Source: a virus (lineage: Duplodnaviria > Caudoviricetes). From it: DNA of 29,377 nt. This document shows positions 9,225-29,377 of the stretch, piece after piece (the stretch's first letter is position 1; every line of letters starts with the position of its first letter). Location: positions 1 through 29,377 of the IMG/VR virus record IMGVR_UViG_3300003972_000002; one strand, 5' to 3'. A program made the translations under genes and the position numbers. The notes under the pieces were generated by a model that worked only from the letters and a program-made list of their open reading frames with translations, was not told the DNA's origin and did not search any database.

Positions 9225-9547
9225 GGCGCGACACCCAACTCGGTATCCATCTCCAGCCACGTTGACCGAGGTCGAAGCTTGACGGTGCGTATGTTCAACC
9301 GCTTACCCCGCCATAGAAGGGTGCAGGACTCATCAACATCGGATCGGTTATGGATAACGACCAGATACATCGTTTCCGCGCCGACCTTTTGCGCTCGCTC
9401 CAGCTCCCGCCCAGACATGGGGCGTACATGAGCCCATACCGTCGCGACCGTCTCCCAGGTGAGCGTCGATCCGCCCATGCCATCGTCCACGCGAAGTTCT
9501 CGCTGGATCGTCACGCGCTGATCTAGCTCACCGATCGAATACGTCAT
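9221..9547 (-). CDS. Head closure / head-tail joining protein (SPP1 gp16-like)
   Basis: IGELDQRVTIQ...DGMGG...W..VATVWAHVRPMSGRE motifs. Confidence 0.9.
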   Translation of the reverse strand: MTYSIGELDQRVTIQRELRVDDGMGGSTLTWETVATVWAHVRPMSGRELERAQKVGAETMYLVVIHNRSDVDESCTLLWRGKRLNIRTVKLRPRSTWLEMDTELGVAP

Positions 9548-10257
9548 CGGTAGTGCTCACGAATCCAGGGCGACTGTCGAAGCGCATCTCGGTCCCAAGG
9601 GTCCGGCTTGCCATGAAACACGACGATGCGCGCACCCGCCGGCAACTTCCCCCGATTCCGTCTAAGGCAGTCGCGGCGATAGGCAAAGATTCCGTCCTTA
9701 ATGGTGAATTTCGCCTCGTTCCGCCCAAGGCAGTATTGAATCCAACCTTGATCCGAGCCGAAGTTCCCGGCCGCATTCGCGAGGCGCGGTGATCTTTCCG
9801 GATCGAAGTCCGTCCACACCTGCGGACGACACCCCGCGTTCATCAGGATCATTGATCCGTTGTAGTGATAGTTCGAAGAATCGCTCGCGTAGATCACGAA
9901 GTCCTCGGGGCGATTCCACAACGGGCGCAGATCGCCCGTAATCACCACATCCAAGTCAATCGAGACGAACCGCTCCCCAGCAATCTTTCCGAACTCCGGC
10001 GCGAACATCTGCAGCCGTCGAAAGCAGCTCGGCCCAACGCCCGGCCATGTCGGGTTCTTCAGATCCGCGTACACATCACCGATCGGAAACGTCTGTACTC
10101 GCGGATCAATCCCGACCGGATCGTCCGTAATGCAAATGACTCGATGCGGGTCCGGATACCACCGCTCTACCATCGAGCGAAGGGCGTTGACGTGCTCCGC
10201 TGTGAATGTCGATCGATAACCCGGCTTCTTCCACTTCCAGGTGACGACCGTCAGCAC
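9544..10257 (-). CDS. GT-A fold glycosyltransferase
   Basis: Likely GTG start at 10257; CITDD, DxD motif in FVSIDLDVVITGDL, YNGSMI, SDQGWI, IVVFHGKPDPW. Confidence 0.85.
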   Translation of the reverse strand: MLTVVTWKWKKPGYRSTFTAEHVNALRSMVERWYPDPHRVICITDDPVGIDPRVQTFPIGDVYADLKNPTWPGVGPSCFRRLQMFAPEFGKIAGERFVSIDLDVVITGDLRPLWNRPEDFVIYASDSSNYHYNGSMILMNAGCRPQVWTDFDPERSPRLANAAGNFGSDQGWIQYCLGRNEAKFTIKDGIFAYRRDCLRRNRGKLPAGARIVVFHGKPDPWDRDALRQSPWIREHYR

Positions 10258-10508
10258 GGGTACAGAACCTCTCTCGCCTTGCACTCAAGGCGGTACGTGG
10301 ACACGCAATGATCTGGCTCCCAGAAATAGAGCCGGTCAACCACATACCCCAGCGCTAGCCCTACCCATCGCTTAACCCCGGATTCCGTCGATATCCATCG
10401 GCCCAACAATCCAGACACCGTTTCGCGCGGCAATGCCCAGGGTGCGAAAACAATGGAGCAGACGAGCATGTTGCAGGCGACGTAGATATTGAATGCGACA
10501 CGCTTCAC
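10251..10508 (-). CDS. Small conserved phage protein with hydrophobic segments
   Basis: GTG start at 10508 (GTGA overlap); ETVSG...DRLYFWEPDHC motif recurrent in phage hypotheticals. Confidence 0.65.
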   Translation of the reverse strand: MKRVAFNIYVACNMLVCSIVFAPWALPRETVSGLLGRWISTESGVKRWVGLALGYVVDRLYFWEPDHCVSTYRLECKAREVLYPC

Positions 10509-11383
10509 CACGCCCCCGATTCGATCTCGTCGAACATCACATCGAACAACTGAATCCATTTCTTATCCGTGCCAAATATCGGCGCATCGTTACACTTGCC
10601 CGGCGAGGGCCAGGGCCACGCAAGACTCGTCTCGAGCAATCGCCACTCGTCGCCGTCCTTGAGCACATCGATGGCGCACCAATTCGTTCCAGCGTGTTGG
10701 AAGAACCGGTCGGCGAACTCCAGTAACGATTCCGTCTCGGTATCCAACTGCATCGCCGGCTCGACATTGCCGGTCTGTGCGACGGGCCTGTCCGGGTAGC
10801 AGTAGCGCTTGAAGATCGCTCGCGCGTTGCCGATAGCGTTCACGCGCCATGTAATGCTGTGAGGAATGAACCGCTGCAACAGCACGTATCCCTTTTGCCA
10901 GCTCTTCTTCCCACCCGCGCAGTGATCGACTTCTATTCCCTTGTCGAACACTTCAACGCAGTGCCTCACACCTTCCGCGCGCGTCTTCAGTATCCGAACG
11001 TTCTTGGAGCTCGCGCCAACATCCGCCTTACTGACGAGCGGATAGTCGGCGGACTCGGCAAACCGAATGGCTTCATCCTTGCCGGAGAATCGCCACGTAT
11101 CTGGCATCCAGTCGCGCCAGCGCCAGAACTGAGCCGACTTGTCCTCGTACACGTCGATCTGCGTCTGGTCCTGCACCATCCGCAAGCGCTTGGACATCAG
11201 CGCGAAATCGTCGCGGTTCTCCTTGAGTCTCTTTGGATCTGCATGCGGGCGGATGAATCCGACTCCCGGCCCCTCGCATTCTTCGCCGCGGAAGATCCGG
11301 CGCGCGTCGTAGCCGCGATCACGGGCGACTTTCAGCATCGGTCCGTGCCAGACCTTCCTTTCGTCAAGGCAGAAGAACTTCAT
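10505..11383 (-). CDS. ATP-grasp fold ligase (RimK-like)
   Basis: YEDKSAQ, PDTW, YPLVSKADVGASSKNV, LLQRFIPH, WRVN, AIDVL...LLET motifs. Confidence 0.82.
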   Translation of the reverse strand: MKFFCLDERKVWHGPMLKVARDRGYDARRIFRGEECEGPGVGFIRPHADPKRLKENRDDFALMSKRLRMVQDQTQIDVYEDKSAQFWRWRDWMPDTWRFSGKDEAIRFAESADYPLVSKADVGASSKNVRILKTRAEGVRHCVEVFDKGIEVDHCAGGKKSWQKGYVLLQRFIPHSITWRVNAIGNARAIFKRYCYPDRPVAQTGNVEPAMQLDTETESLLEFADRFFQHAGTNWCAIDVLKDGDEWRLLETSLAWPWPSPGKCNDAPIFGTDKKWIQLFDVMFDEIESGAW

Positions 11384-11876
11384 CCAACCTCACCAGCGGA
11401 AAGCACTTCAGCGCCGTCCCTTCCGTCGCGTTCAGCACCTCGACCTTCGGGTTGCGCTTCTTCCACTGCGCGAACTGCAACATGTGCTCTTTGCGTCTCG
11501 ACGGCAGCGTATTGATGCAGCCGTTCGTGTATGGTCCGAAGAAATGCGTGCCGTGCATATCGAAGCCCAGCATCACAACCTTCGTGGCCCCCAGGTTCCG
11601 CAGCACATCCAACGCGAGTAGGCCGCTGTTGGCCATGCCGCCGAACGTCGTCGGCTTCGCTTGCTCGACGCCTTCGATTCGGTGCGACGTGAACTTGCGT
11701 CCCGCAAATTGTTTTGCCTGCGGATGTTTCTGCCACCACTTCACGTCGTTGGCGACGAGGATGTCGGCCCATGGCGCAAGTTCGTAGGCGTTGTTGACGA
11801 CGCAGACTTTGTGTCCGCGCACGCGCTCGGCCAGAGCCGCACTCATGGACGGCCCTGGACCCAACAGAAACCACAT
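11364..11876 (-). CDS. MptE/DUF115 (Maf / sialyltransferase-like) fold putative sugar transferase
   Basis: LLGPGPSM, VCVVNNAY, DILVAND, NSGLLAL, GATKVVMLGFDM, VLNAT motifs. Confidence 0.75.
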   Translation of the reverse strand: MWFLLGPGPSMSAALAERVRGHKVCVVNNAYELAPWADILVANDVKWWQKHPQAKQFAGRKFTSHRIEGVEQAKPTTFGGMANSGLLALDVLRNLGATKVVMLGFDMHGTHFFGPYTNGCINTLPSRRKEHMLQFAQWKKRNPKVEVLNATEGTALKCFPLVRLDEVLLP

Positions 11877-11877
11877 T

Positions 11878-12288
11878 TCACGCGATGGTCGTCTTTCTAA
11901 GACCGGTGAGCAGCGCTGTCGCTGTCTTGCTCAGAATGTAACCGTGACCTTCGGTCGGCTGAACACGGTCGTCGCTTTGGCCTTCGAAACGCGACGTCAG
12001 CTCAAGTAACACGGCAGCACGGACGATTGGATGCACTTTCGGCTCGCCGCTCTCGTCGTATTCCGGGATAGGATGTCCGTTGTCGTCAAGAATCGGCTTG
12101 CCGTCAGAGCCGCGTATAGGCTCGTATAGACGCCAATGGTCCTTTACCCACGAAGCCACTGATTCAGATACGGCGGGAATCCAAATAGCCAACCAGTTAT
12201 CCTGCGGCGTGTTGCCGTCCTCGTCGACATCCAGCCGAAGCTGCTGAATCGCGTCCTCGCGCGTGACGAGCTCAAGCATTCCCGTCAT
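11878..12288 (-). CDS. Head-tail connector (SPP1 gp15/HK97 gp6-like)
   Basis: LVTREDAIQQLRLD, VRAAVLL and C-terminal ALLTGLRKTTIA motifs. Confidence 0.8.
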   Translation of the reverse strand: MTGMLELVTREDAIQQLRLDVDEDGNTPQDNWLAIWIPAVSESVASWVKDHWRLYEPIRGSDGKPILDDNGHPIPEYDESGEPKVHPIVRAAVLLELTSRFEGQSDDRVQPTEGHGYILSKTATALLTGLRKTTIA

Positions 12289-13090
12289 CCTTTTTCTTTA
12301 TCGGCACCGGCGCAGTTTTGTCGATGCCGTTGCGGCCGTCCTTTCCATCGCGACCCTTGCGGGCGAGGATGCGCCAGTCCTTGCATCCCTGTGCCGGCTT
12401 CTCGTCCGTCTCGCGCAAGGCAATGTATGCAGTGCCAGATTCGGTTGTAACCATCCCCTTTTCATATCGCCCGGGGCGCCAATAGCCGCCGTCGATTGGC
12501 ACCGGAATCTTCTTTCGAATCTCTCCGCCTTTCCCGCGAATGACAAGCGTGCGCTGCTCGATGTCGTAATCGAACTCTGTCTCTGTGAAGTCAGCGCCGT
12601 CCTTGCCATCGCGGCCGGGCGCACCGTCACGCCCGATAACCACGCCCAGAGACTTTGTGCGACCATCAGTGAACGTCGCCACGAGCTGGCCGTCGCGGTC
12701 GATGAGTAGATCTTGGATGCCAGCGCCGTCTTTGCCGGGGTCGCCTTTCGGGCCAGGCTCGCCCTTTTCTCCCGGCGCGCCGTCCTTGCCATCTTTCGGC
12801 GGTGGGAGTTTCGATACTTCTTCTTTCACTCGGAGTTCGATAGCAGATGCGAGCTCTTCGGAATCGAGTAGAGCACGCGCAACGTCAAGCGGGTCGCAGT
12901 CTTTGCCGGCCGGGCCGGATTCGCCCTTCTCGCCCCGCTCGCCCTTCTCAGGCTGGCGCGCCTCCAGTTGATCGATGCGTTTCTGCATGGACGCGAGCGC
13001 CGCATGCGCTTCTTCAAGGGCTTTCCGCATGGGCAGAATCATCTTGCCCAGCGATTCGCCTAGCGCCTCTGCTGCTGCCTCAAAGTTCAT
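12272..13090 (-). CDS. Prophage collagen-like protein (coiled coil, Gly-X-Y tracts, conserved C-terminal domain)
   Basis: Start re-called at ATG 13090 (GGAG RBS); GERGEKGESGPAGKD, GKDGAPGEKGEPGPKGDPGKDG, GRDGAPGRDGKDG; C-terminal WRILARKGRDGKD. Confidence 0.85.
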   Translation of the reverse strand: MNFEAAAEALGESLGKMILPMRKALEEAHAALASMQKRIDQLEARQPEKGERGEKGESGPAGKDCDPLDVARALLDSEELASAIELRVKEEVSKLPPPKDGKDGAPGEKGEPGPKGDPGKDGAGIQDLLIDRDGQLVATFTDGRTKSLGVVIGRDGAPGRDGKDGADFTETEFDYDIEQRTLVIRGKGGEIRKKIPVPIDGGYWRPGRYEKGMVTTESGTAYIALRETDEKPAQGCKDWRILARKGRDGKDGRNGIDKTAPVPIKKKDDGNA

Positions 13091-13100
13091 CCGATGCTCC

Positions 13101-13133
13101 AAAAGAAAAGGGCTCAGCCTTTCGGATGAGCCC
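13101..13133 (-). terminator. Intrinsic terminator closing the pentamer array
   Basis: Minus strand GGGCTCA-TCCGAAAGGC-TGAGCCC then TTTTCTTTT. Confidence 0.85.
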
Positions 13134-13140
13134 CTCTTAA

Positions 13141-13515
13141 TTACCTTGCCTATTCCTTTCCAGAACGCTACATGCCCAGCCGCTGCGAATCCCACGCCGC
13201 CTCAACGTGCCGCGCCATTTCTCGGCTTACCTGCATTGCCTTTTCCCGCCGCGCCCGGTCTTACGACTCCCTACCAGGCCAGGCCGTGGCACGCCTGCGT
13301 TGCCTCGCCTGTCATAGCCTGACGATTCCTAGCGACGCCGTGTCTCGCCTGCCACTACTTGCCTTGACATGCCTCGACAATGCATGTCGTGCCGGCCTTG
13401 TCTATCCACGCCTGTCAGCGCCAATGCCCATCATGCCGCGCCGCGCCTTGCCTGCCTTGTACTTCCTAATCGCGCCGATCCTGGCCAATCCTTCCCTTGC
13501 CCAGCCTTGCCTGCC
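13141..13515 (-). repeat. Non-coding 5-nt-periodic GGN-NN array in six units; candidate guide-RNA array
   Basis: Hand-parsed: 68 in-phase pentamers, 61 starting with G and 41 with GG; 4-nt junctions GGCA/GGCA/GGCC/GGCA/CGCA/TGCA start (minus strand) at 13515, 13456, 13397, 13353, 13299, 13235. Confidence 0.88.
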
Positions 13516-14003
13516 TAGCCGTTCACAGCCACAGCATGCGTCACGTTCGCATCCTTGCGTGCGGCTGAGGCTGCCGCATTCTCAACTTCATCGACGGCAG
13601 ACCATACGGAAGCGAGTTCCTTTATGGCCTTGTACTTCTTCTGGATGTTGCGCATCTGTACAACAGCGTCATGCAGCATCTGCGCATACAACTCTTCGTC
13701 GCTCATCACGTCAGCGATGGCGCGGTATCCACCGCCCGGCTGCACGCGATCCGTCGTAAGAGAGACGAAGGCCCGGACAACCGGACCTTCCTCGCCCTTC
13801 GGCTCGACCACGTAAACACGGATCAGATTGCGCGCCTGAAGCAACCGATATTGATGTGCTGCTTCGCTGTTATCCCACATGAAGCAATCATGCAGCGGGG
13901 AATCTTCGTCCTTCGCCGCTTCGACTACATCAGCCGCGAGAATCTTTCCCTCGCGCTTGAGTCGCTCCAGTTCTGCCCGGATCGCATCGTGGTCACGCTT
14001 CAT
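13515..14003 (-). CDS. Accessory protein of the RAMP/array cassette, function unknown
   Basis: 162 aa; ATGA-coupled to upstream gene; motif VVEAAKDEDSPLHDCFMWDNSEAAHQYRLLQARNLIR; its stop codon overlaps the first array junction. Confidence 0.8.
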   Translation of the reverse strand: MKRDHDAIRAELERLKREGKILAADVVEAAKDEDSPLHDCFMWDNSEAAHQYRLLQARNLIRVYVVEPKGEEGPVVRAFVSLTTDRVQPGGGYRAIADVMSDEELYAQMLHDAVVQMRNIQKKYKAIKELASVWSAVDEVENAAASAARKDANVTHAVAVNG

Positions 14004-14647
14004 GCCGCTTCCCTCTTGGCCTCAGCTTCCGTCGCCAGCCGGAACGTTCCCCAGCCCATGCCGGCGCTGCTCTTGCTATCCGGACGGCCTTCGCACAACC
14101 CGACCTGCTCGCCGACTCTGGCGAGGAGATTCGACACGTCGCTGACACTGAACTGATCTGCGTCATAGCGAATGCGAACATCTGCCTGCCACTTGTCCCA
14201 CATAGGACGGCTGCGAATATCAATCACGCCCGTCGCGTTCCGGACGTGAAGATCAACGCGCCGATACTTATCGGCAATCAGCCGAACCAGCGGCGTGCCT
14301 TCGTCACGGTCGAACCCATCGGCAACGACGAAGAGCGAAAGCTTCGCCAGCGTCATCTTGAAACCGACCAGCCTACAGGCCGAGATCATCGCCGCCCGGA
14401 AGGCGCCAGCCGGAATACCGACCCAACCTTCTTGGCTGTAGTGGACAGACCCATCGCACACAGCATCGAAATCCTTCGCCGCGCGCTGCTTCTTGCTGCG
14501 CGCCTGACTCCCAGCCGCTTGCTGGGCCATCATCTGTTCCTTGGCCTTCTGGCTGAACTTCGCCTGGACCAGCGGCGCTGTGCCGATGATCCGGAATTGC
14601 ACCGTTTGAATATTCGGTGCCTTGATCTGAACAACACTGCTCGACAT
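14000..14647 (-). CDS. Stand-alone Cas7/RAMP-like protein
   Basis: N-terminal strand FRIIGTAPL, GIPAGAFRAAMISA helix, RSRPMWDKW, C-terminal Gly-rich loop VGEQVGLCEGRPDSKSSAGMGWGTF; strong GAGGTG RBS. Confidence 0.72.
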   Translation of the reverse strand: MSSSVVQIKAPNIQTVQFRIIGTAPLVQAKFSQKAKEQMMAQQAAGSQARSKKQRAAKDFDAVCDGSVHYSQEGWVGIPAGAFRAAMISACRLVGFKMTLAKLSLFVVADGFDRDEGTPLVRLIADKYRRVDLHVRNATGVIDIRSRPMWDKWQADVRIRYDADQFSVSDVSNLLARVGEQVGLCEGRPDSKSSAGMGWGTFRLATEAEAKREAA

Positions 14648-14718
14648 GGCTTCACCTCTATATGTGTGTGATCGGCTGATTGGGTAAACCCAGCGCCGAC
14701 TGCCTCAACGGCAAAGCC

Positions 14719-14762
14719 ACTCTACTACCGTTTTCGGTTATCTGCAACCTTGTAGCAGGTTG
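14719..14762 (-). promoter_or_regulatory. Sigma70-type promoter for the RAMP cassette with overlapping palindromic operator candidates
   Basis: Minus strand TTGCAG (14742-14747)-17 nt-TAGAGT (14719-14724); inverted repeats ACCG-TTTT-CGGT (14727-14738) and CAACCT-N6-AGGTTG (14745-14762). Confidence 0.55.
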
Positions 14763-14826
14763 TCTCAACCCGTCTCAGGGCGTAGCATGCCCTTTCACTG
14801 GTTTAACGCACCCGAGGTACGCGACA

Positions 14827-15048
14827 ATGTCGTCCATGCTGACTGGACAAAAACTCCGCGCCATCCGTGCCTTGCGCGGCATTACTCAAGCCGCGCTTGC
14901 GGAAAAGGCCGGCGTGAGCCCCACCGCTATTGCCGAGTACGAACAGGGCAAGCGCGACCTGCGCGCTGGCACTATCCGGAAGCTCTGCGAAGCGCTCGAC
15001 GTGAAAGTCAGCTACCACGTCGACGGCACCGAGATTACCGGGCCATAA
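14827..15048 (+). CDS. XRE/Cro-C1 helix-turn-helix transcriptional regulator
   Basis: LRAIRALRGITQAALAEKAGVSPTAIAEYEQGKRDL; start re-called at ATG 14827 (or 14836) after GAGGT; divergent from the RAMP gene. Confidence 0.9.
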   Translation: MSSMLTGQKLRAIRALRGITQAALAEKAGVSPTAIAEYEQGKRDLRAGTIRKLCEALDVKVSYHVDGTEITGP

Positions 15049-15050
15049 AG

Positions 15051-16466
15051 TCAGCGCGAAAGAACTTCGCGCGCGATATCTCCGTACAGCTTCCGCTCGA
15101 CAAGAGAGACGAACCGCCGCACCTGCTCCTCTTCTCCCTCCTCCTCGTCGGCATCCTCCTCGGTTTCCGCGTCGGAGTCTTCTTCATCATCGCCGTCATC
15201 AGGCGAAACAGGATTCCCCTCCGGATCAACAATCTTGTTCTTTCGAACTTGATCAATGGGGAAGTCTTGCTGCTGAAGATAGATTGTGTCGCCGCCCTCT
15301 ACCGGCGCGCGATTGAAACGCAGCCGGCCTTCGTTCGGCGTTTCGATACCGCCGCCGACCAGTTTGGTCGCCACCTCGGCACGCTTGCCCTCGTCCATAC
15401 GCAGCAGGGGCTCGAGATCCATTTCCACGCCCATCGGCCGAGAGATGCCGAGCCCTTCGTCCAAAAGGTTCTCCATCGCCTCTATGTGCCCCTGCAGAGC
15501 GTCGGCGTAATAGAGCTGGTTGATGGCATCCACGCCGAGCCCGGCAGGAATCGCACCGATCCCAATCTTGAACGGCGGGATGCCGAACGGCTGACAGATT
15601 TGCTCGTCGGAATATCGCATCTGTTCCACGAGCTGAGCGTCCGCGCCTTTCATCGCGAACGACGTGAACTTCATGTCCGCGCCAATCACAGCCACGCGAC
15701 CAGCGTTGCTTCCGGTGTAGTTCTCTTCCCAGAACTTCTTGACCAATGCGGCGTCGTCTTCGGACATGCCAGCCGGCGCAGTCAGAATTCCGCCTGGCTG
15801 AGCGTTGTTCGCGAAGAACTCCGCGGACGAGCGCAAGATGCGCAGGTTCTTTGCCGCCGGCCAATACGCGGCACATAGGGGCGGCACGCCAATGAGATGA
15901 TGATGCAGACAGTTCATCCTGTCGTGGATGATTTCCGACGCAGGAATAATGACCTGCCCTGCCGGATACGACGCCGGCAAAAGGTTCTCCGCCGTCGTGT
16001 AATTCAGCTGATAGAACACCGCGCCAGACTCAGACACCATCGGAATCACGCGGCACGGGTCCAGCACATACAGCGCAACGACAACGCCGCGGTTGTCCCG
16101 TTGTTTCAGGACGTAGGCATTGCCATTCGTCAGCTTGGACAGCGCCCAGACTTCCCGGAACTGCTGCGCGGTCTGATACGAATTCGGCTTGCGCAGGACG
16201 GGCGAATACGCCGGATTCTCGACCGTATTCCAGACACCGTTGTCATCCTCCTTTTTGAGGAGGAACGGAAGCTTGCCGATGTCCTGCGAGATGCGATTCA
16301 GGCAGGCGTAGAGCGTTGGGTACGCCGTCAGGTCGCCGACCTTCTCCTCTTGGTTCGACTGCCACGCGCCCGCGAACGGCTCGTGAATGATCCGCCATCC
16401 GTTACGCCAGCTATTGACTGGAGACAGCGCTTTGGCGCGTCGAATCTCCAAGCCGAAAATCTTCAC
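15051..16466 (-). CDS. HK97-family portal protein
   Basis: EPFAGAWQ, LTNGNAY, EIIHDR, FFANNAQPGGIL, QLVEQ, FGIPP, TPNEGR, PVEGGD; acidic C-terminal tail. Confidence 0.95.
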   Translation of the reverse strand: MKIFGLEIRRAKALSPVNSWRNGWRIIHEPFAGAWQSNQEEKVGDLTAYPTLYACLNRISQDIGKLPFLLKKEDDNGVWNTVENPAYSPVLRKPNSYQTAQQFREVWALSKLTNGNAYVLKQRDNRGVVVALYVLDPCRVIPMVSESGAVFYQLNYTTAENLLPASYPAGQVIIPASEIIHDRMNCLHHHLIGVPPLCAAYWPAAKNLRILRSSAEFFANNAQPGGILTAPAGMSEDDAALVKKFWEENYTGSNAGRVAVIGADMKFTSFAMKGADAQLVEQMRYSDEQICQPFGIPPFKIGIGAIPAGLGVDAINQLYYADALQGHIEAMENLLDEGLGISRPMGVEMDLEPLLRMDEGKRAEVATKLVGGGIETPNEGRLRFNRAPVEGGDTIYLQQQDFPIDQVRKNKIVDPEGNPVSPDDGDDEEDSDAETEEDADEEEGEEEQVRRFVSLVERKLYGDIAREVLSR

Positions 16467-21325: not shown

Positions 21326-21859
21326 ATGAGATACCTAGCCCTTGTCCTGTGCGTTCTCTCTATGAGCGCTCATGCCTTCAAGATCGAACAGAAGCAGGAC
21401 GAATTCACCAAAGCCTCGTACATCCGGGCCTCAGACCTGAAGCTCTGCCAGATCAAGAGCGCCGGCTTTGCTGCCCAGTGCGCATCCTTGGATCTGGTCT
21501 GGGATCCCGAGATGCCCGAGGTGGTCGCTATCCGCCTGGAGCAAAATGGCATCAGCGGCATCACTCAGGTGGCCGTGAACATCGGTGGGGACATACAGCG
21601 CTTTGGCGCTGATACACCTACCTACTTCGACTACAGCCGCTCGATTGGCCGGGCGTCTAGAACCCTGGCCTGGAGCAGTGCAAATATGTTCTTGCTCCCG
21701 GTCAGCGTCCTTGAAGCCATTGCCGCCGACCAGGGTAATGGCCTGATTCGAGTCACCGGTCTGCACGCGTCGACCGATTACGACTTCTATCGCAAGGCCA
21801 AGGCTCGGGGGGTCCCGGCCGATGAGTTACGGAAGTTCCTCAGCGCCATCAAGCCTTGA
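21326..21859 (+). CDS. Secreted protein of unknown function (opposite-strand moron)
   Basis: GGAGG RBS; signal peptide MRYLALVLCVLSMSAHA|FK; two Cys in mature part. Confidence 0.8.
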   Translation: MRYLALVLCVLSMSAHAFKIEQKQDEFTKASYIRASDLKLCQIKSAGFAAQCASLDLVWDPEMPEVVAIRLEQNGISGITQVAVNIGGDIQRFGADTPTYFDYSRSIGRASRTLAWSSANMFLLPVSVLEAIAADQGNGLIRVTGLHASTDYDFYRKAKARGVPADELRKFLSAIKP

Positions 21860-22803: not shown

Positions 22804-24360
22804 TTACGGCGTGCATTCGTTCAGTGTGAACGTCGTTCCGTCATCGCTCACGCCGCACGTCACGATCGCCGCATTGTCCGCATCGTTACGGAGCGTTTTC
22901 GTCGTGCTCGTTTGCTGCACTTTGTTTCTGCTCCACGCGCCGATCCAGCACACCCATTCCTTCACTGTCGACGTGGACCAGGACGGTTTCCCGGTCGGTT
23001 CGTCGCAGGTCTGGCCATCCAGCGCAGATTCCACGGCGCTCTGTACGTCCTCCGAGCTCAGGTCATTGAGCCCAGTGATTCCATCGCGGATCGTATCGAG
23101 GATGCCGCTCGACGGATCGGCGGGCGTGCTGCCACTCACCGGGATGCCGAGGATGGAGCGAATTGCCGCCCGCTCGTCTGCATTCCAATCCGTGCCGCCA
23201 CCGCCCTCGCCGGCCGGGGCTTGCGCCAATGCCGCCTCGGTGAAGCGATACGTGCCCGAGTTGTCTTCCAGCGTATCGTCAAGCTTGTCTGTCGTGACCT
23301 TGATCGCATCGACCACGCCATCCACCGTCGAGAGGGCCGATGCAGAAGCCAAGGACGTGAGCGCGCCCGAATCAGGCAGGTTATCCGTCACTGCCTTGAT
23401 GCTATCGACGTTGCTGTCGATCGTCGCGAGCTGCGTATCGAGGTTTGCGCTTGAGAGTCCGATGGCAGAGCGAATGCCGGCCGCATCCAGTCCACCACCC
23501 CCAGAACTGGGGGCCGTGCCAAACAGGTAATACGTGATCGTGCCTGATGGCGTGACCGTCCATGCGTCCACCGTAGCCGTATCGGAGCTGCCCGTGTAAT
23601 CGGTCACTACACGTGATTGGCAGTAACCCTGCGTCGAGCCACACGCCACCAGCGTCATGCCGATCGGCACGTCATCCGCGAACGATGCTGCCGAATCGAG
23701 CACCAGCGTCGTGCTGGTTGCGCTTTGAGCCGTGCCTTGGCGAGCGATGCCCAGCGGAGACACAGCGCCAGCCGTGCCGTCGAAGGCAGCTTCCAGCGCA
23801 TCGGCCGCGCCAGAATCGCCGCTGAGTTGCACAGCATTAGCCGCAACAACGCCCGAGTTCAACAAGACCTGGCCCGTGCCTGTACCACTCGACAGTAGCA
23901 CGCTCGCGCCGATGTCACGGCCTGTCACCGCAGTACCGCCGAAGCTGACCACATTCACCGGCGGCGACAGTTGCACCGTTCCGCCGATCACGATCATGCC
24001 AGGGACCGTGCCCATCACCTCAACCGCCGTTGCGCCAGCAGCCACAGCAGCATCTGGCAGGTCCAGGCGATAGTAGCCGTTGCCCAGGTGAACAAAGCCT
24101 CCATCGGTATGCGCACCACTGACGGTCTGCGTGACTTCAGTGATATCCGCCACCGAGTTCGCGCCGTGGCGCCAATACTTAAGATCGAGGCCCGACGTGT
24201 TGAAGACAACGCCCGTCTCAGGCGTGCCGTCGGTCGCATCGATGATCTTGATGACGACGGTCTGATCCGTCGCGCCGGCCTGAATGGTCTTGATGACCCC
24301 GGCACAAGACAGCGCACTCCATAGCGCCAGAAATACGCCTAGGAAAATGCGTTGCTTCAT
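22804..24360 (-). CDS. Signal-peptide fibre-like protein with internal repeats
   Basis: MKQRIFLGVFLALWSALSCA|GV; GYYRLDLPDAA domain; VDSIKAVTDNL / VDAIKVTTDKL repeats. Confidence 0.8.
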   Translation of the reverse strand: MKQRIFLGVFLALWSALSCAGVIKTIQAGATDQTVVIKIIDATDGTPETGVVFNTSGLDLKYWRHGANSVADITEVTQTVSGAHTDGGFVHLGNGYYRLDLPDAAVAAGATAVEVMGTVPGMIVIGGTVQLSPPVNVVSFGGTAVTGRDIGASVLLSSGTGTGQVLLNSGVVAANAVQLSGDSGAADALEAAFDGTAGAVSPLGIARQGTAQSATSTTLVLDSAASFADDVPIGMTLVACGSTQGYCQSRVVTDYTGSSDTATVDAWTVTPSGTITYYLFGTAPSSGGGGLDAAGIRSAIGLSSANLDTQLATIDSNVDSIKAVTDNLPDSGALTSLASASALSTVDGVVDAIKVTTDKLDDTLEDNSGTYRFTEAALAQAPAGEGGGGTDWNADERAAIRSILGIPVSGSTPADPSSGILDTIRDGITGLNDLSSEDVQSAVESALDGQTCDEPTGKPSWSTSTVKEWVCWIGAWSRNKVQQTSTTKTLRNDADNAAIVTCGVSDDGTTFTLNECTP

Positions 24361-24362
24361 GG

Positions 24363-25148
24363 TCAGTGTTCCAGTTGCTGAATGATTTTCGGCAGTGCGC
24401 TCGATTCGCTGCCACCTCCGCCGTACTGCGTGAAACTGGTGATAGCGAAATTGTCCTGGATCGGCTCGTCGAAATCCTTGGCCGCGAAAACATTATCGAA
24501 GTATCCGGTGAATCCCAAGCCCGACGCATCGCCAAGCTTGAGCGCGCCTTCGCCCGCCAGACTGGAAGGCGCGGTATATCCGCTTGTGTAGCTGACGCCC
24601 TGAATGAGCGACGGCGTGCCGGTGGGGTCGCTATAGACTTCGATTCGCAGCGTGCCAGCGGCAGCGTCCCACCGGCAGATCACGCCATAAGTCACGCCCT
24701 GAGACAGACTGTTCACGGTCGTTACCGCGCGGGCGGGTGGACTGTCCGCGTCGCCAACGAAGCACGCCATGTTACCGGAGCCGTTCAAGCCCTCCAGCTT
24801 TACGCCGTACTGGTTCGACGAGCTCGGCCCTATGAGGGCGATGGTCTGGCCGCCGGCCCATTGCGTTACGTGCAGCAGGAACGCGAGCAACCCTTCGGCG
24901 GGATCGAACACCGTTGACGTGGCATCGGCACGCCCCTGATGCAGCAGGCCATTCGTCCAAAGGCCGTAGCTGCCAACGAGCGCCGCCGTCTCGGAAATCG
25001 ACGCCTCAGCGTTCAGCGTGATGCTACCCATGTCGTTGGGCAGGTCATCAGTCGAATCGAGCGTCGTCCCCTCGGCGCGCCAAAACCAAGTCGGGTCGGC
25101 CCACGCCGGGCCCGCCAGCAGGCACAACAGGATGGCGACGCGCATCAT
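24363..25148 (-). CDS. Signal-peptide LamG/ConA-like jelly-roll protein
   Basis: Start re-called at ATG 25148 (ATGA overlap); MMRVAILLCLLAGPAWA|DP; beta-rich with LKLG...FTGYFDNV ending. Confidence 0.72.
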   Translation of the reverse strand: MMRVAILLCLLAGPAWADPTWFWRAEGTTLDSTDDLPNDMGSITLNAEASISETAALVGSYGLWTNGLLHQGRADATSTVFDPAEGLLAFLLHVTQWAGGQTIALIGPSSSNQYGVKLEGLNGSGNMACFVGDADSPPARAVTTVNSLSQGVTYGVICRWDAAAGTLRIEVYSDPTGTPSLIQGVSYTSGYTAPSSLAGEGALKLGDASGLGFTGYFDNVFAAKDFDEPIQDNFAITSFTQYGGGGSESSALPKIIQQLEH

Positions 25149-26665
25149 TGCCGCCTGCCGATTTGGTCGCTCATGTCCGAGGTGATGTAGGCGCCGATGT
25201 TGATCGGGCCGTTTGTTCCGTTGCCGAGCAAGTCCAGGTAGTCGGTTGCCGCGTTCCGGTACGGCGACCCAGATTCCAGTCGGAAATCCCCATTCTCGGC
25301 ATCCGCAAACAGCGGGTCGGTGTCGCCGAACAGCCCATGCTCGTCGCGCGGCGGCGTGTCGCCCTGCCAAGCCGAGACGCTGATCGAACTGCCCTCCGGG
25401 TCGCCGGCAAACTGTGTGTAGCCGCTGCAACCGTTGTAATCCCAACGGAGGCGGTCGGTGTGCGATCCGTCGGTGTACGTCCAGTTGCACGCATACACAT
25501 TCACGTAGGCGTTGTTTCGAACAACGATGGTGCCATCGACGAAGCTCCCCTCCGGCCCTTGCGTGACGAAGCCACCGGGCTGCCATGTCCCGGACTCGTA
25601 TCGGTATCCGTTGCCGACGGTGTTATTGACGAACGCAATGCCTGCCGGCTCGTTGGAGCCGTAGGACTTCGCCGCCAGCGCGATCTGCGCCCTGGTTACC
25701 ACGTTCTGATACACCCGTACCCAATTCTCAGGATCGGTCTGGATCGGGTTCGAGACAACGATTCCGCCATTCGACTGATCCACGCGATTGTGGTGGATAT
25801 CGATGTTGGCCACCTGGATGCCTTCTCGTTGGCCCTTGCTCCAGATCGCTGTCGGTAGCACCTCAAGCGTGTTGTGATGAATGCTGCCGTTCGCCGAGTT
25901 GAAGAGCATGATGCCCGTCGTGTTGTGCGGGGCGCCGCCGGTAAGGGCCGATCCAGTGGACGTGATGTAGCTGTCCGCCAATTCGAACCCGTCGACGAAC
26001 TCAATGTGGACCACGCTACGGTTGCCGTCGGTGCCGAAATGGTCGCCCAGTATGTCGAGGTACATGCGCACCGCCGCCACGTTCTCGGATTCCCAGAATC
26101 CGACCAACGCCACCTCGCCGCTGCCGCCGCCGGCCTGAGTCTGCGGCGACCCCGAAAGCGACTCGATCACGAACCCGTCGAGCACGACGAACTCGCTCTG
26201 CCAGAACCCGATCAGTGTTCCGCCGCCCGTGCCGCGCGTCAGGCGAGTCGCGCGCGCGGGGTCGCCGGGATACTGCGCCTTGTGAACGACTCGTCGCGTC
26301 GCGCTGGCACCGCTGGCCGGGACGAGCGTCGGATACTTCTGTCCCGACGCGTTCGAGCCGTTGACGGTCAGCGTCCCCTGCAGCCACAGGACGACGCGGT
26401 CCTCGTCTTCCGACGACGCTGTGATCGCCAGCCCCTGAGTCGGGTTGTATGGATCCTCCAACGTGCCGGCGCCCTGTGATGTTTTCTCGGGATCGACGTA
26501 TGCGTACGGCTCCAGCGCGTCCCACTCATACAACTGGCTCGGACCCGGACCAGGATCTGCCGCCACATACAACCGCGGGCCGCTCTGAGTGATTAGACCG
26601 GCAGAGGACACGACCGCCTGCATCACAAGTAGAGTGACGCAGACCAGCCGGAACAATGATTTCAC
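25145..26665 (-). CDS. Signal-peptide right-handed beta-helix protein
   Basis: MKSLFRLVCVTLLVMQAVVSSA|GL; GTLEDPY, IHHN repeats, VNNTV, VRNN; C-terminal DPLFADAENGDFRLESGSPY...NIGAY. Confidence 0.82.
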   Translation of the reverse strand: MKSLFRLVCVTLLVMQAVVSSAGLITQSGPRLYVAADPGPGPSQLYEWDALEPYAYVDPEKTSQGAGTLEDPYNPTQGLAITASSEDEDRVVLWLQGTLTVNGSNASGQKYPTLVPASGASATRRVVHKAQYPGDPARATRLTRGTGGGTLIGFWQSEFVVLDGFVIESLSGSPQTQAGGGSGEVALVGFWESENVAAVRMYLDILGDHFGTDGNRSVVHIEFVDGFELADSYITSTGSALTGGAPHNTTGIMLFNSANGSIHHNTLEVLPTAIWSKGQREGIQVANIDIHHNRVDQSNGGIVVSNPIQTDPENWVRVYQNVVTRAQIALAAKSYGSNEPAGIAFVNNTVGNGYRYESGTWQPGGFVTQGPEGSFVDGTIVVRNNAYVNVYACNWTYTDGSHTDRLRWDYNGCSGYTQFAGDPEGSSISVSAWQGDTPPRDEHGLFGDTDPLFADAENGDFRLESGSPYRNAATDYLDLLGNGTNGPINIGAYITSDMSDQIGRRQ

Positions 26666-26692
26666 GGCGCGCCCACTAGTCCTGTTGGGGTG

Positions 26693-27136
26693 TCACCCAA
26701 TCGTCAGCTCGATCGTCACGTCGGTTGGTACGCCGGGTAGCACGTCGAGCACGATTTGCTTGCTCACCTGATTGCTCAGCGGGCTGTCGCCGGCGGCGTT
26801 GCGGGCCGACACGCGAGCGTAGAGCGTCTGACCGTTCTGGACCTGCATCGTGTGCTGCGTCGTGGTCTCGCCGGCAGCCAGCGTCAAGGTCGGTGCACCG
26901 GTCGGCTGATCCGGGATCGGGCTTGTGTCGATCCATACGTGTACCGCCTGCAGTTGGGCATTGCCTGTGAGCGGCAGGTCGCAGACCGGCGGCTCGACGC
27001 CAACCAAGCAGCCGGTCGTCGGCAGTGTCCAGCGCAAGGTCAGCTTGCCCGGGACGGTCTGCGCCAGCGCCACGCCTGCGCACAGCAGGCACAGCACGAC
27101 CAACGCGCCGTAGAAGGCGACAGGATTGCGGGTCAT
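26693..27136 (-). CDS. Signal-peptide fibronectin type III-like protein
   Basis: Start re-called at ATG 27136 after GGAG; signal ...LCAGVALA|QT; LTLRWTLP and YARVSARNAAGDSPLSN FN3 motifs. Confidence 0.82.
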   Translation of the reverse strand: MTRNPVAFYGALVVLCLLCAGVALAQTVPGKLTLRWTLPTTGCLVGVEPPVCDLPLTGNAQLQAVHVWIDTSPIPDQPTGAPTLTLAAGETTTQHTMQVQNGQTLYARVSARNAAGDSPLSNQVSKQIVLDVLPGVPTDVTIELTIG

Positions 27137-27210
27137 GCAAAGCTCCGAATAGGTGGCCGCGACACGCCCGGTGGTCAGGTGACTTCGTGGGGATGTTGGC
27201 GAGCGCGGCC

Positions 27211-27249
27211 AAAAACGAAAACCCCGCCGAGCTTTCGCCGGGCAGGGTT
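27211..27249 (-). terminator. tR'-like terminator downstream of the late promoter
   Basis: Minus strand AACCCTGCCCGGC-GAAA-GCTCGGCGGGGTT then TTCGTTTTT. Confidence 0.75.
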
Positions 27250-27258
27250 CGGAAGGAC

Positions 27259-27307
27259 AGTATGTGACTCTGAACCTGTATATATCCTTTCTGTGACGGA
27301 AAGGCAA
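27259..27307 (-). promoter_or_regulatory. pR'-like late promoter with downstream -10-like pause element
   Basis: TTGCCT (27302-27307)-17 nt-TATATA (27279-27284); CATACT (27259-27264); immediately after the Q-like gene. Confidence 0.6.
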
Positions 27308-27309
27308 TA

Positions 27310-27717
27310 TCAATCAACAGGCAGCCCGGCGAGCTTTCGGCGCGCTCGGCTCACCCGCTTTCGCAGCGCCTCTTCCGTGATCCCCGCCTTCCGGCACTTG
27401 TGCTCGATCGGCCAGAGCGTGCCGTCCGGCTTCACTCGGATCACGTACCAGATCCAGACCGCCTCGCGCTCGTACTCGGTCAACACCTGCAGCAGCCGAG
27501 CGTGCACCGCGTAGACCATGGGTGGCATGTCGAGGCACAGGATCTTGTGACCTGGCGAGCCGCCGCCTCGACCAGATCGCCATGCTTCCAGCGCGCTGAC
27601 GCCAGGGTACCCCTCGAAGTCCATATGCTTCTCGACCCACCGGCCCCAGACGTTGAGCTCGTAGTTGATGCCCTGGAGTTCGTAGCGCTCGGCGTGCCGA
27701 TCCAGTTTTGCGCTCAT
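27310..27717 (-). CDS. Antitermination protein Q-like
   Basis: INYELNVWGRWV N-terminal motif, C-terminal HTH-like GITEEALRKRVSRAR; followed by promoter plus terminator; TGATG-coupled start at 27717. Confidence 0.7.
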   Translation of the reverse strand: MSAKLDRHAERYELQGINYELNVWGRWVEKHMDFEGYPGVSALEAWRSGRGGGSPGHKILCLDMPPMVYAVHARLLQVLTEYEREAVWIWYVIRVKPDGTLWPIEHKCRKAGITEEALRKRVSRARRKLAGLPVD

Positions 27718-28207: not shown

Positions 28208-28686
28208 CGCGCCACCCCATTGCACCGGCACTCGGCGTAAGACTTCGTACATGTGGGGCACCAGTCGGGATTGCGAGCAACTGGCGGAGGTTGGGCGGCT
28301 CGCTCCCTCAACGGCGACGGCTCAACACCGCCCTCGCGGCAGAATCGGATGATGTGCTTCCAGTCGGAATCTTTGCGCGCCTGTCGCATCGCCAGCAGCA
28401 GGCAGTTGCGCAGTGCTGATTCGCGATCTGCGGCAAGCTGCTTGTAGTGCGCGTTCTCGGCCATCACCACCGCATGGGCCGACTCGGTGCGGATCAGGTC
28501 GCGGCGTAGCTCCTCATTCTCAGCCACCCTCGCCTCTCGGGTGCCGACTTCGCGGGCGAGCTCGTCCCGGAGGTGCTGGATGTACGGGTCGATCTCTGAT
28601 GCGTAGTAGATATCGTCCTGCACAGCCTCGCACCACACAGGCCAAGGTGCATCATCCACATCCTTTGTCGGGAGTTGGTCGGTCAT
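28204..28686 (-). CDS. Hypothetical nin-region protein with coiled coil
   Basis: ATGA-coupled start at 28686 (MTDQLPTK); C-terminal CPTC...CRC. Confidence 0.65.
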   Translation of the reverse strand: MTDQLPTKDVDDAPWPVWCEAVQDDIYYASEIDPYIQHLRDELAREVGTREARVAENEELRRDLIRTESAHAVVMAENAHYKQLAADRESALRNCLLLAMRQARKDSDWKHIIRFCREGGVEPSPLRERAAQPPPVARNPDWCPTCTKSYAECRCNGVAR

Positions 28687-29150
28687 GCCGCGGATCCCCA
28701 GCGAATCTTCGGCTCTGTCGGATGCGCGTCGATCCGCGGGCGTGATCGGCGCGACCAACTCCCGCCGCCCGTTTCCGCTTCTGCCTCAAACCCAGCTGCC
28801 CGCAGGCTCGCGCCACCCTCAGAGGGCAGCGTGTAGCTGATCGTTCGCGTGTAGCCCATCTGTTGCGCTATGCGCCGGCATCGCGCGTACAGCATTGAGC
28901 AACCATTTCTCACGCCCGGTAGAACGCAGACACGGACAACCTCGCAATACCCCTTTCGCTGAAGGATTCTTGAGACGGGCCGGCCGGCAATGGCTACGCC
29001 TACGAGTTCACCGGAGCGCATGAGTGCAATCGCCCACAGTCCGCCTTGTGGCATATCGTGGTGCCGGTGATGCTCCTGAACGAATGCCCGCGCTTGGCGC
29101 AGCGTTACAGGCCGGATACTCAGATCCTTTGTCGTGCGCTGCTCGCTCAT
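28683..29150 (-). CDS. XF1762-family / Mom-like GNAT-fold protein
   Basis: ATGA-coupled start at 29150; AFVQEHHRHH, GVAIAGRPVSR, EVVRVC, NGCSMLY, YTL..E.GASLRAAGF. Confidence 0.75.
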   Translation of the reverse strand: MSEQRTTKDLSIRPVTLRQARAFVQEHHRHHDMPQGGLWAIALMRSGELVGVAIAGRPVSRILQRKGYCEVVRVCVLPGVRNGCSMLYARCRRIAQQMGYTRTISYTLPSEGGASLRAAGFEAEAETGGGSWSRRSRPRIDAHPTEPKIRWGSAA

Positions 29151-29377
29151 GTTGTTTGTTCCACGTGGCACTCTTTCGAATGTTTCTTGGCTTGATACAT
29201 AGCCCGTTGCTTCGCCAGCTTTTCCCGATGCATCTCGCACATCGCCTTCACGATCTCTTTGTCAAAGCCAGAGTCGATGTGCTTGCCTTGCGGTGAGTAC
29301 GCGTTGTAGTAGGCGCGGCCGTTGGGGCCGTAAGCCCAGGTGATCTTGTAGCCGTGCTCATTAGTGGCTTCGCGCTT
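29147..29377 (-). CDS. Partial hypothetical protein (5' end outside window)
   Basis: Manual translation ...KREATNEHGYKITWAYGPNGRAYYNAYSPQGKHIDSGFDKEIVKAMCEMHREKLAKQ...EQTT*; stop overlaps the next ATG. Confidence 0.6.
   Translation of the reverse strand, partial: KREATNEHGYKITWAYGPNGRAYYNAYSPQGKHIDSGFDKEIVKAMCEMHREKLAKQRAMYQAKKHSKECHVEQTT

Follow-up and report, generated by a model that had tools for sequence, protein, structure and literature searches.

A staggered VIPR array in an HK97-type phage whose guides appear to spell head and tail genes of related phages

Recent work has described VIPR, a CRISPR-related, RNA-guided system that combines a vipr gene, a vap gene and vrRNAs built of alternating GGY and NN elements, with seven types and 667 systems in the published survey (10.64898/2026.04.26.720920). 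Its code skips one nucleotide at the wobble base, no PAM is needed for DNA binding or for silencing, and substitutions in GGY abolish silencing in the system of Escherichia phage SUSP1 (10.64898/2026.04.26.720920). As far as the available text of the preprints goes, the SUSP1 filament places one Vipr on each pentamer, hiding GGY and presenting NN to double-stranded DNA with one base skipped per repeat (.720920,.720927); the same text, with a later preprint, gives the SUSP1 targets as a satellite and its recombinase and those of a P. fulva clade as mainly prophage regulators (.720920,.720927, 10.64898/2026.10.15.759431). A subset of loci carries “staggered arrays”, in which vrRNA boundaries fall at 1-nt guide overlaps and internal repeat degeneracy has been noted (10.64898/2026.04.26.720920, fig. 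S18 legend). Small-RNA sequencing has confirmed ribozyme-spaced and single-guide arrays and not staggered ones, and the published searches, which use an 80% match cut-off for targets, found no self-targets above 80% (10.64898/2026.04.26.720920).

The window, the whole 29,377-nucleotide stretch analysed here, is a tailed-phage fragment whose head module (terminase, prohead protease, capsid and portal) is of HK97 type; it also has a tape measure, and nearly all of its genes are on the minus strand. Inside the head module the genes for a RAMP protein and its partner share one orientation with an array of six units (Table 1): a phage-encoded locus of vipr plus one accessory gene without a CRISPR array, which is the minimal composition of a VIPR system. 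The array has the VIPR layout, GGY-related triplets alternating with hypervariable NN in 8-16 repeats per unit, and since a 4-nt step between pentamers is equivalent to the published 1-nt overlap, that layout is the staggered one. The explanation that fits best, and in which we have high confidence, is that this is the staggered array of a phage VIPR whose NN letters spell head and tail genes of relatives, every third base being skipped, and which likely silences rivals by binding their DNA. The original prediction had implied that grammar and code were new, a claim overtaken by the literature (10.64898/2026.04.26.720920); as the system, its code and the staggered layout are all published, the locus is not a discovery of a new kind.

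Table 1. Features of the cassette and its array, in window coordinates
Feature	Position	Strand	Description
vipr gene	14000..14647	minus	215 aa; RAMP/Cas7-like predicted guide-binding protein
accessory (vap-like) gene	13515..14003	minus	162 aa; stop codon overlaps first array base
XRE/Cro-type HTH gene	14680..15048	plus, divergent	HTH_3 E=4e-16; a later ATG may be the true start
guide array	13141-13515	minus	six GGY/NN pentamer units, 4-nt slips between units
unit 1	13457..13515	minus	11 pentamers; no target found
unit 2	13398..13456	minus	11 pentamers; probably aimed at the C-terminus of relatives' tape measures (AAMGFAQV codons)
unit 3	13354..13397	minus	8 pentamers; aimed at the tape-measure gene of relatives (TMFEINKV codons)
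unit 4	13300..13353	minus	10 pentamers; aimed at the portal gene of relatives (DTVYMQQQD codons)
unit 5	13236..13299	minus	12 pentamers; no target found
unit 6	13152..13235	minus	16 pentamers; aimed, at family level, at homologs of the collagen-repeat gene of the head region (12272-13090)
array end	13101..13151	minus	two further pentamers, GC-rich hairpin and U-run; possible terminator

The 215-aa protein matches phrog_4652 (E=4e-18), the same family that SUSP1 Vipr matches (E=1.4e-96), and hhalign aligns the two proteins over 53 columns (E=1.4e-5). Its structure model (pLDDT 89) has only CRISPR RAMPs as top structural matches (Csm3, Cmr and Cas7 chains, Foldseek E 6e-5), and a VIA structural comparison with RAMP chains gave Z 10.2 and rmsd 3.5 over 150 aligned residues. 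The protein has the RRM core, thumb and G-loop of a stand-alone RAMP, is homologous to Vipr and has at least 6875 homologs; a search by sequence found no solved structure that matches. The SUSP1 protein used for comparison agrees with the published Vipr numbering at H17, K33, E71, M72, R138, C173, D177, W178 and R179, and has V at position 175, where the published numbering has T. In a profile alignment the SUSP1 GGY-contact residues R138, D177 and R179 fall on R147, E186 and R188, invariant in 70 homologs. The SUSP1 residue W178, which stacks on G2, aligns to G187, the residue being glycine in this clade, and this replacement may account for the loose second G of the array. Homologs of the RAMP gene, annotated as hypothetical, also occur in Cyanophage Cy-LDV1 (L431, 61% identity) and Mycobacterium phage Donkeykong (L430, 31% identity), and mycobacteriophages would make an easy experimental system.

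The partner of this gene is less alike. The 162-aa protein matches phrog_15946 (E=1.4e-18), and a homolog adjoins vipr in 74 of 80 related loci; hhalign against SUSP1 vap1, a single-sequence template, detected no homology (E=0.27), and the two proteins belong to different PHROGs (phrog_15946 and phrog_5926). One fold search returned weak forkhead and winged-helix rows at E ~1 or higher, and a second was dominated by a long helix. The divergent HTH gene possibly regulates the cassette, judging from its position. The distance from the portal match to the head-tail connector is ~0.75-1.35 kb in related phages and ~2.8 kb in the window phage, and no Vipr homolog was found in 282 loci (L147-L428, target loci included), so the cassette is an insertion in the head module. 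The closest named genome match of the portal is a Luteimonas prophage, a match that does not assign a host.

Other parts of the window hold genes of separate interest. The stretch from the head-tail connector to the tail genes holds three minus-strand genes (9544-11876). A 292-aa gene without a family match has a glycosyltransferase (phrog_1962, E=4e-17) on one side and on the other a sialyltransferase-like gene (phrog_4603, E=7e-35); the three are possibly a virion glycosylation module. A Mom-family protein (28683-29240, minus; PF25680, E=1.9e-6) could serve DNA modification or anti-restriction. A 177-aa ORF with a signal-peptide-like start and no Pfam match sits moron-like on the opposite strand of the late region (21326-21859, plus), and several ORFs with signal-peptide-like N-termini occupy an unusual position upstream of the terminase genes (22804-27313, minus).

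An independent parse of positions 13100-13540 reproduced exactly the six units, junctions and NN strings of the original prediction, with 4-nt slips at 13515 (GGCA), 13456 (GGCA), 13397 (GGCC), 13353 (GGCA), 13299 (CGCA) and 13235 (TGCA); a 1-nt slip follows unit 6, and after it two extra pentamers run to 13141. Each junction is a slip at NGC(A/C)|GG, where successive units overlap by 1 nt at the sequence level, and the units abut directly, with no structured 3' tail and no fold common to them. The periodicity score of the array is 69, whereas 1000 dinucleotide shuffles averaged 6.6 and peaked at 17.8; nowhere else in the window, on either strand, does the score pass 12. Tandem Repeats Finder called just a 20-nt piece of the array. 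Rfam gave no match and the promoter scan no sigma-70 promoter. The hairpin at the array end is statistically weak (z -1.76, with equal folding in 11/200 shuffles) and is absent from the terminator scan output.

Related phages carry arrays of the same build. Among 80 IMG/VR loci encoding homologs of the 215-aa protein, a set with many redundant members and 88 distinct arrays, 78 have a same-strand pentamer array with 4-nt slips. NGCA stands at 380 of the 449 slips in these arrays, 248 of 317 units hold 7-13 pentamers, and the last NN begins with A in 187 of 279 units. That AA ends four of the five complete units of the window was likewise confirmed, and because terminal NN often mismatch their targets and last NN are mostly A-initial in relatives, the recurring AA is probably part of the junction and not of the code. 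No unit of the window is shared with the 80 loci (best, 4-5 NN). Very long staggered arrays lie beside Vipr homologs at L050:2146-2938 (149 pentamers, 12 slips) and L069:4641-6093 (263 pentamers, 30 4-nt slips); at a third locus (L068) a pair of Vipr and vap homologs has no pentamer array detected within 8.6 kb.

Arrays also differ between close strains. A contig from public run X2 shows 30 differences over 1559 nt (13508-15066, spanning the HTH, vipr and vap genes; ~98% identical) with the array replaced by 361 other letters, and run X5 has the same joint to the replaced array. Two further cases are single low-depth contigs: that of run X14 continues past the first slip with different pentamers, and a 165-nt contig of run X10 keeps units 5-6 (3 differences) with a different pentamer unit upstream.

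What do the NN letters encode? Read as codon positions 1-2 against the phage's own genes, unit 3 resembled the tape measure (p=0.02), unit 4 the portal (p=0.009) and unit 6 the collagen-repeat gene (p=0.085), in 12 tests. Target families were picked post hoc, after these resemblances, so the test that follows is one of gain at independent positions in relatives and not a blind screen. Units 3, 4 and 6 match relatives' genes beyond shuffles, as expected if NN is a gapped code, and these matches stop at or near the unit borders, in keeping with the proposal that each unit is an informational block. The original prediction was supported in part: its gapped code holds in relatives at a 1-nt skip for these three units, and contiguous strings (skip 0) were at chance. 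Within the window itself, DNA matches of the units at skips 0, 1 and 2 were no better than those of shuffles; one nominal self-match of unit 6 at skip 3 (2/60, among 24 tests) was set aside.

The portal match of unit 4 reaches 18/20 in 26 of 106 portal-neighbour loci, where the shuffle maximum was 17 and 0/1000 shuffles reached 18, and it exists solely at a 1-nt skip, skips 0, 2 and 3 being at chance. Its two mismatches are a U facing G and the final NN, and 53 of 72 portals of at least 60% identity match at 17-18/20. For unit 3, all 8 codons are matched in 2 of 120 tape-measure homologs (0/500 shuffles), and those two homologs carry all three substitutions that part the unit from the phage's own copy (TMFEINKV against AMFELNKA). 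A scan of the whole IMG/VR collection found 16/16 DNA matches to unit 3 at 120 loci, 5 of them tape-measure homologs matched at the same site and the other 115 not homologs.

Of 120 homologs of the downstream gene, 12 agree with unit 6 at 11 of 16 codons (0/200 and 0/500 shuffles); since the unit's best DNA match within this head-region family is 23/32, its target is assigned to the family and the exact target was not found there. Exact scanning of IMG/VR with 9 NN of unit 6 gave 0 matches and 301 genomes of the family of the Luteimonas prophage host gave none, and three candidates were rejected: 11 loci from an 8-NN scan (best 22/32 with 16 forced, the chance level), a near-match to a capsid motif (L082/L084) displaced by a one-codon shift, and a 26/32 match with 18 bases forced in an unrelated repeat protein (L194). 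The exact 8-NN core of unit 2 occurs at 54 IMG/VR loci, 10 of which are tape-measure homologs matched at a homologous site, where the full unit scores 17-18/22, 40 codons downstream of the unit 3 site. Unit 2 was not above shuffles in the closer tape-measure set; on these matches it probably targets tape measures of related phages. All remaining unit and family pairs in the tape-measure and head-region-family tests were at chance.

No targets emerged for the other two units, which counts against the preferred reading. Unit 5 found none in 150 terminase representatives or the same 301 genomes, and its candidates, one chance match in IMG/VR and a terminase site at RAGKK (18/24, equal to shuffles), were discarded. 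Unit 1 matches 19/22 antisense at one site in 11 of the 301 genomes, against 2 control matches. These matches (at efp in the one locus inspected) amount to a single orthologous event, close to chance, and no target is claimed from them. Vipr homologs were matched by none of the units. When 222 units from relatives' arrays were compared with the loci of the window phage's group, they were not above shuffles at any skip (2/222 at >=90%); these foreign units serve as a negative control, and because they are at chance the evidence for the skip rule does not extend clade-wide. No single phage among the hit loci has targets for several units, so the guides may record different competitors.

Could the array instead tune the phage's own late genes, its guides binding the portal, tape-measure and head-region genes of the window by partial matches? 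Units 3 and 4 do find their best single site within the window in the phage's own gene, in frame (13/16 and 15/20), and at 81% unit 3 lies above the published cut-off, a point against the silencing of relatives as well. However, such in-frame self-matches are weak, reached in 57-73 of 1000 shuffles; relatives' versions fit better exactly where the own copy differs, the own portal reading DTIYLQQQDF in place of the targeted codons; and the published self-searches cited above speak against the idea. Own-copy matches of the other two units are 17/32 (unit 6) and 15/22 (unit 2). Self-tuning is therefore considered very unlikely.

The degenerate scaffold invites another interpretation, in which a once-functional VIPR array has drifted in GGY and its guides are no longer loaded. 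Only 34 of the 69 pentamers start with an exact GGY, a further point against the preferred reading; G1 is the best kept position (62/69), followed by Y3 (52/69) and G2 (48/69), and the loss of silencing on GGY changes in SUSP1 and the two targetless units lend decay some weight. Against it, NN are near-perfect while the scaffold varies, unit 3 matching 16/16 with exact GGY in 2 of 8 pentamers, and the array of the closest relative (L001) is equally degenerate (42/109). In this clade glycine replaces the residue stacking on G2 in SUSP1, neither gene is disrupted, and near-identical strains have swapped arrays. Decay is also very improbable, if anything slightly more so. That the array is a non-functional satellite or coding repeat born of slippage, as its recurring common pentamers and an overlapping antisense ORF (13172-13759, plus) might suggest, can practically be dismissed, as the original prediction had argued, given its tie to the RAMP gene in related loci, its fixed junction motif and the fit of units 3, 4 and 6, each to one site of one gene family, in the NNx register alone.

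Silencing of relatives through their DNA remains the preferred reading, and it suggests the following course of events. The array would be transcribed as a single RNA. Cleavage or trimming would take place at the GCAG|G overlaps, the points at which a 4-nt step throws the Vipr filament out of register, and would yield a guide without a tail from every unit; neither a dedicated nuclease nor a ribozyme is apparent, and processing would occur at the phase slips themselves. As in SUSP1, one Vipr per pentamer would then hide GGY and present NN to double-stranded DNA, skipping one base. In codon register, units 3, 4 and 6, with unit 2 as a probable addition, spell out portal, tape-measure and head-region genes. 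All unit-target matches lie on the sense strand and skip the wobble base, and the composition of the NN agrees with codon positions 1-2 in sense and with no other phase (log-ratio +7.3 for the window, +121 for relatives). Because the matches have mRNA sense, these guides could pair only with DNA, on the template strand. Binding would block transcription of a rival's virion genes, own copies escaping through at least three mismatches.

A bolder model, which we think unlikely and put forward as speculation, treats the array as an adaptive memory of kin that grows in a polar fashion. On the vap-proximal side, a relative's coding strand would be recoded codon by codon into GGY-NN to give new units, and only guides that spare the phage's own diverged copy would be kept, resulting in kin discrimination among sibling phages; the tryptophan-to-glycine change would let the clade read loosened scaffolds. 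The X10 contig, one low-depth contig in which units 5-6 are kept beside a different upstream unit, and the sense codon-phase bias lend it slight support. The available text of the VIPR preprints gives no explanation of guide acquisition (.720920,.720927, 10.64898/2026.10.15.759431, 10.64898/2026.10.21.760802). Strain pairs with swapped arrays could make acquisition testable, and if the kin-memory model is true, the strains of X2/X5, X10 and X14 are a natural handle on it.

What the locus adds is, first, decodable natural targets for a staggered array, a layout without published RNA-seq confirmation, and these support one guide per unit. Second, it adds a class of target, conserved genes for virion assembly in relatives of the phage itself, whose own copies would be spared by mismatches, as against satellites, integrases and regulators, although the data tables of the preprints may already list such targets or this clade. 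If it works as proposed, a tailless multi-guide cassette would also be a compact tool for multiplex silencing.

Among known systems, the published staggered VIPR arrays come closest: they share vipr, vap, a GGY/NN array, the 1-nt guide overlap and degenerate repeats, and nothing categorical separates them from the window, whose targets are virion-assembly genes of its own relatives. The type II VIPR of SUSP1, as described in the available text, has in common the RAMP PHROG, the wobble-aligned 1-nt skip and targets in competing viral elements. Each SUSP1 guide, in contrast, is an RNA of its own, ~100 nt long with a structured tail of ~40 nt; the window units abut and are tailless. The SUSP1 system also differs in the PHROG of its accessory protein and in W178. 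By the missing 3' tails, a distinction drawn from sequence, the window system is not type II. The class 1 CRISPR-Cas backbone (Csm3, Cmr4/6, Cas7) shares the RAMP fold with its G-rich loop and a guide array, but the window has neither a repeat-spacer array nor contiguous spacers, and no other cas gene was found among its listed ORFs or in 16 other proteins scanned. Together, these comparisons place the locus with the staggered VIPR arrays.
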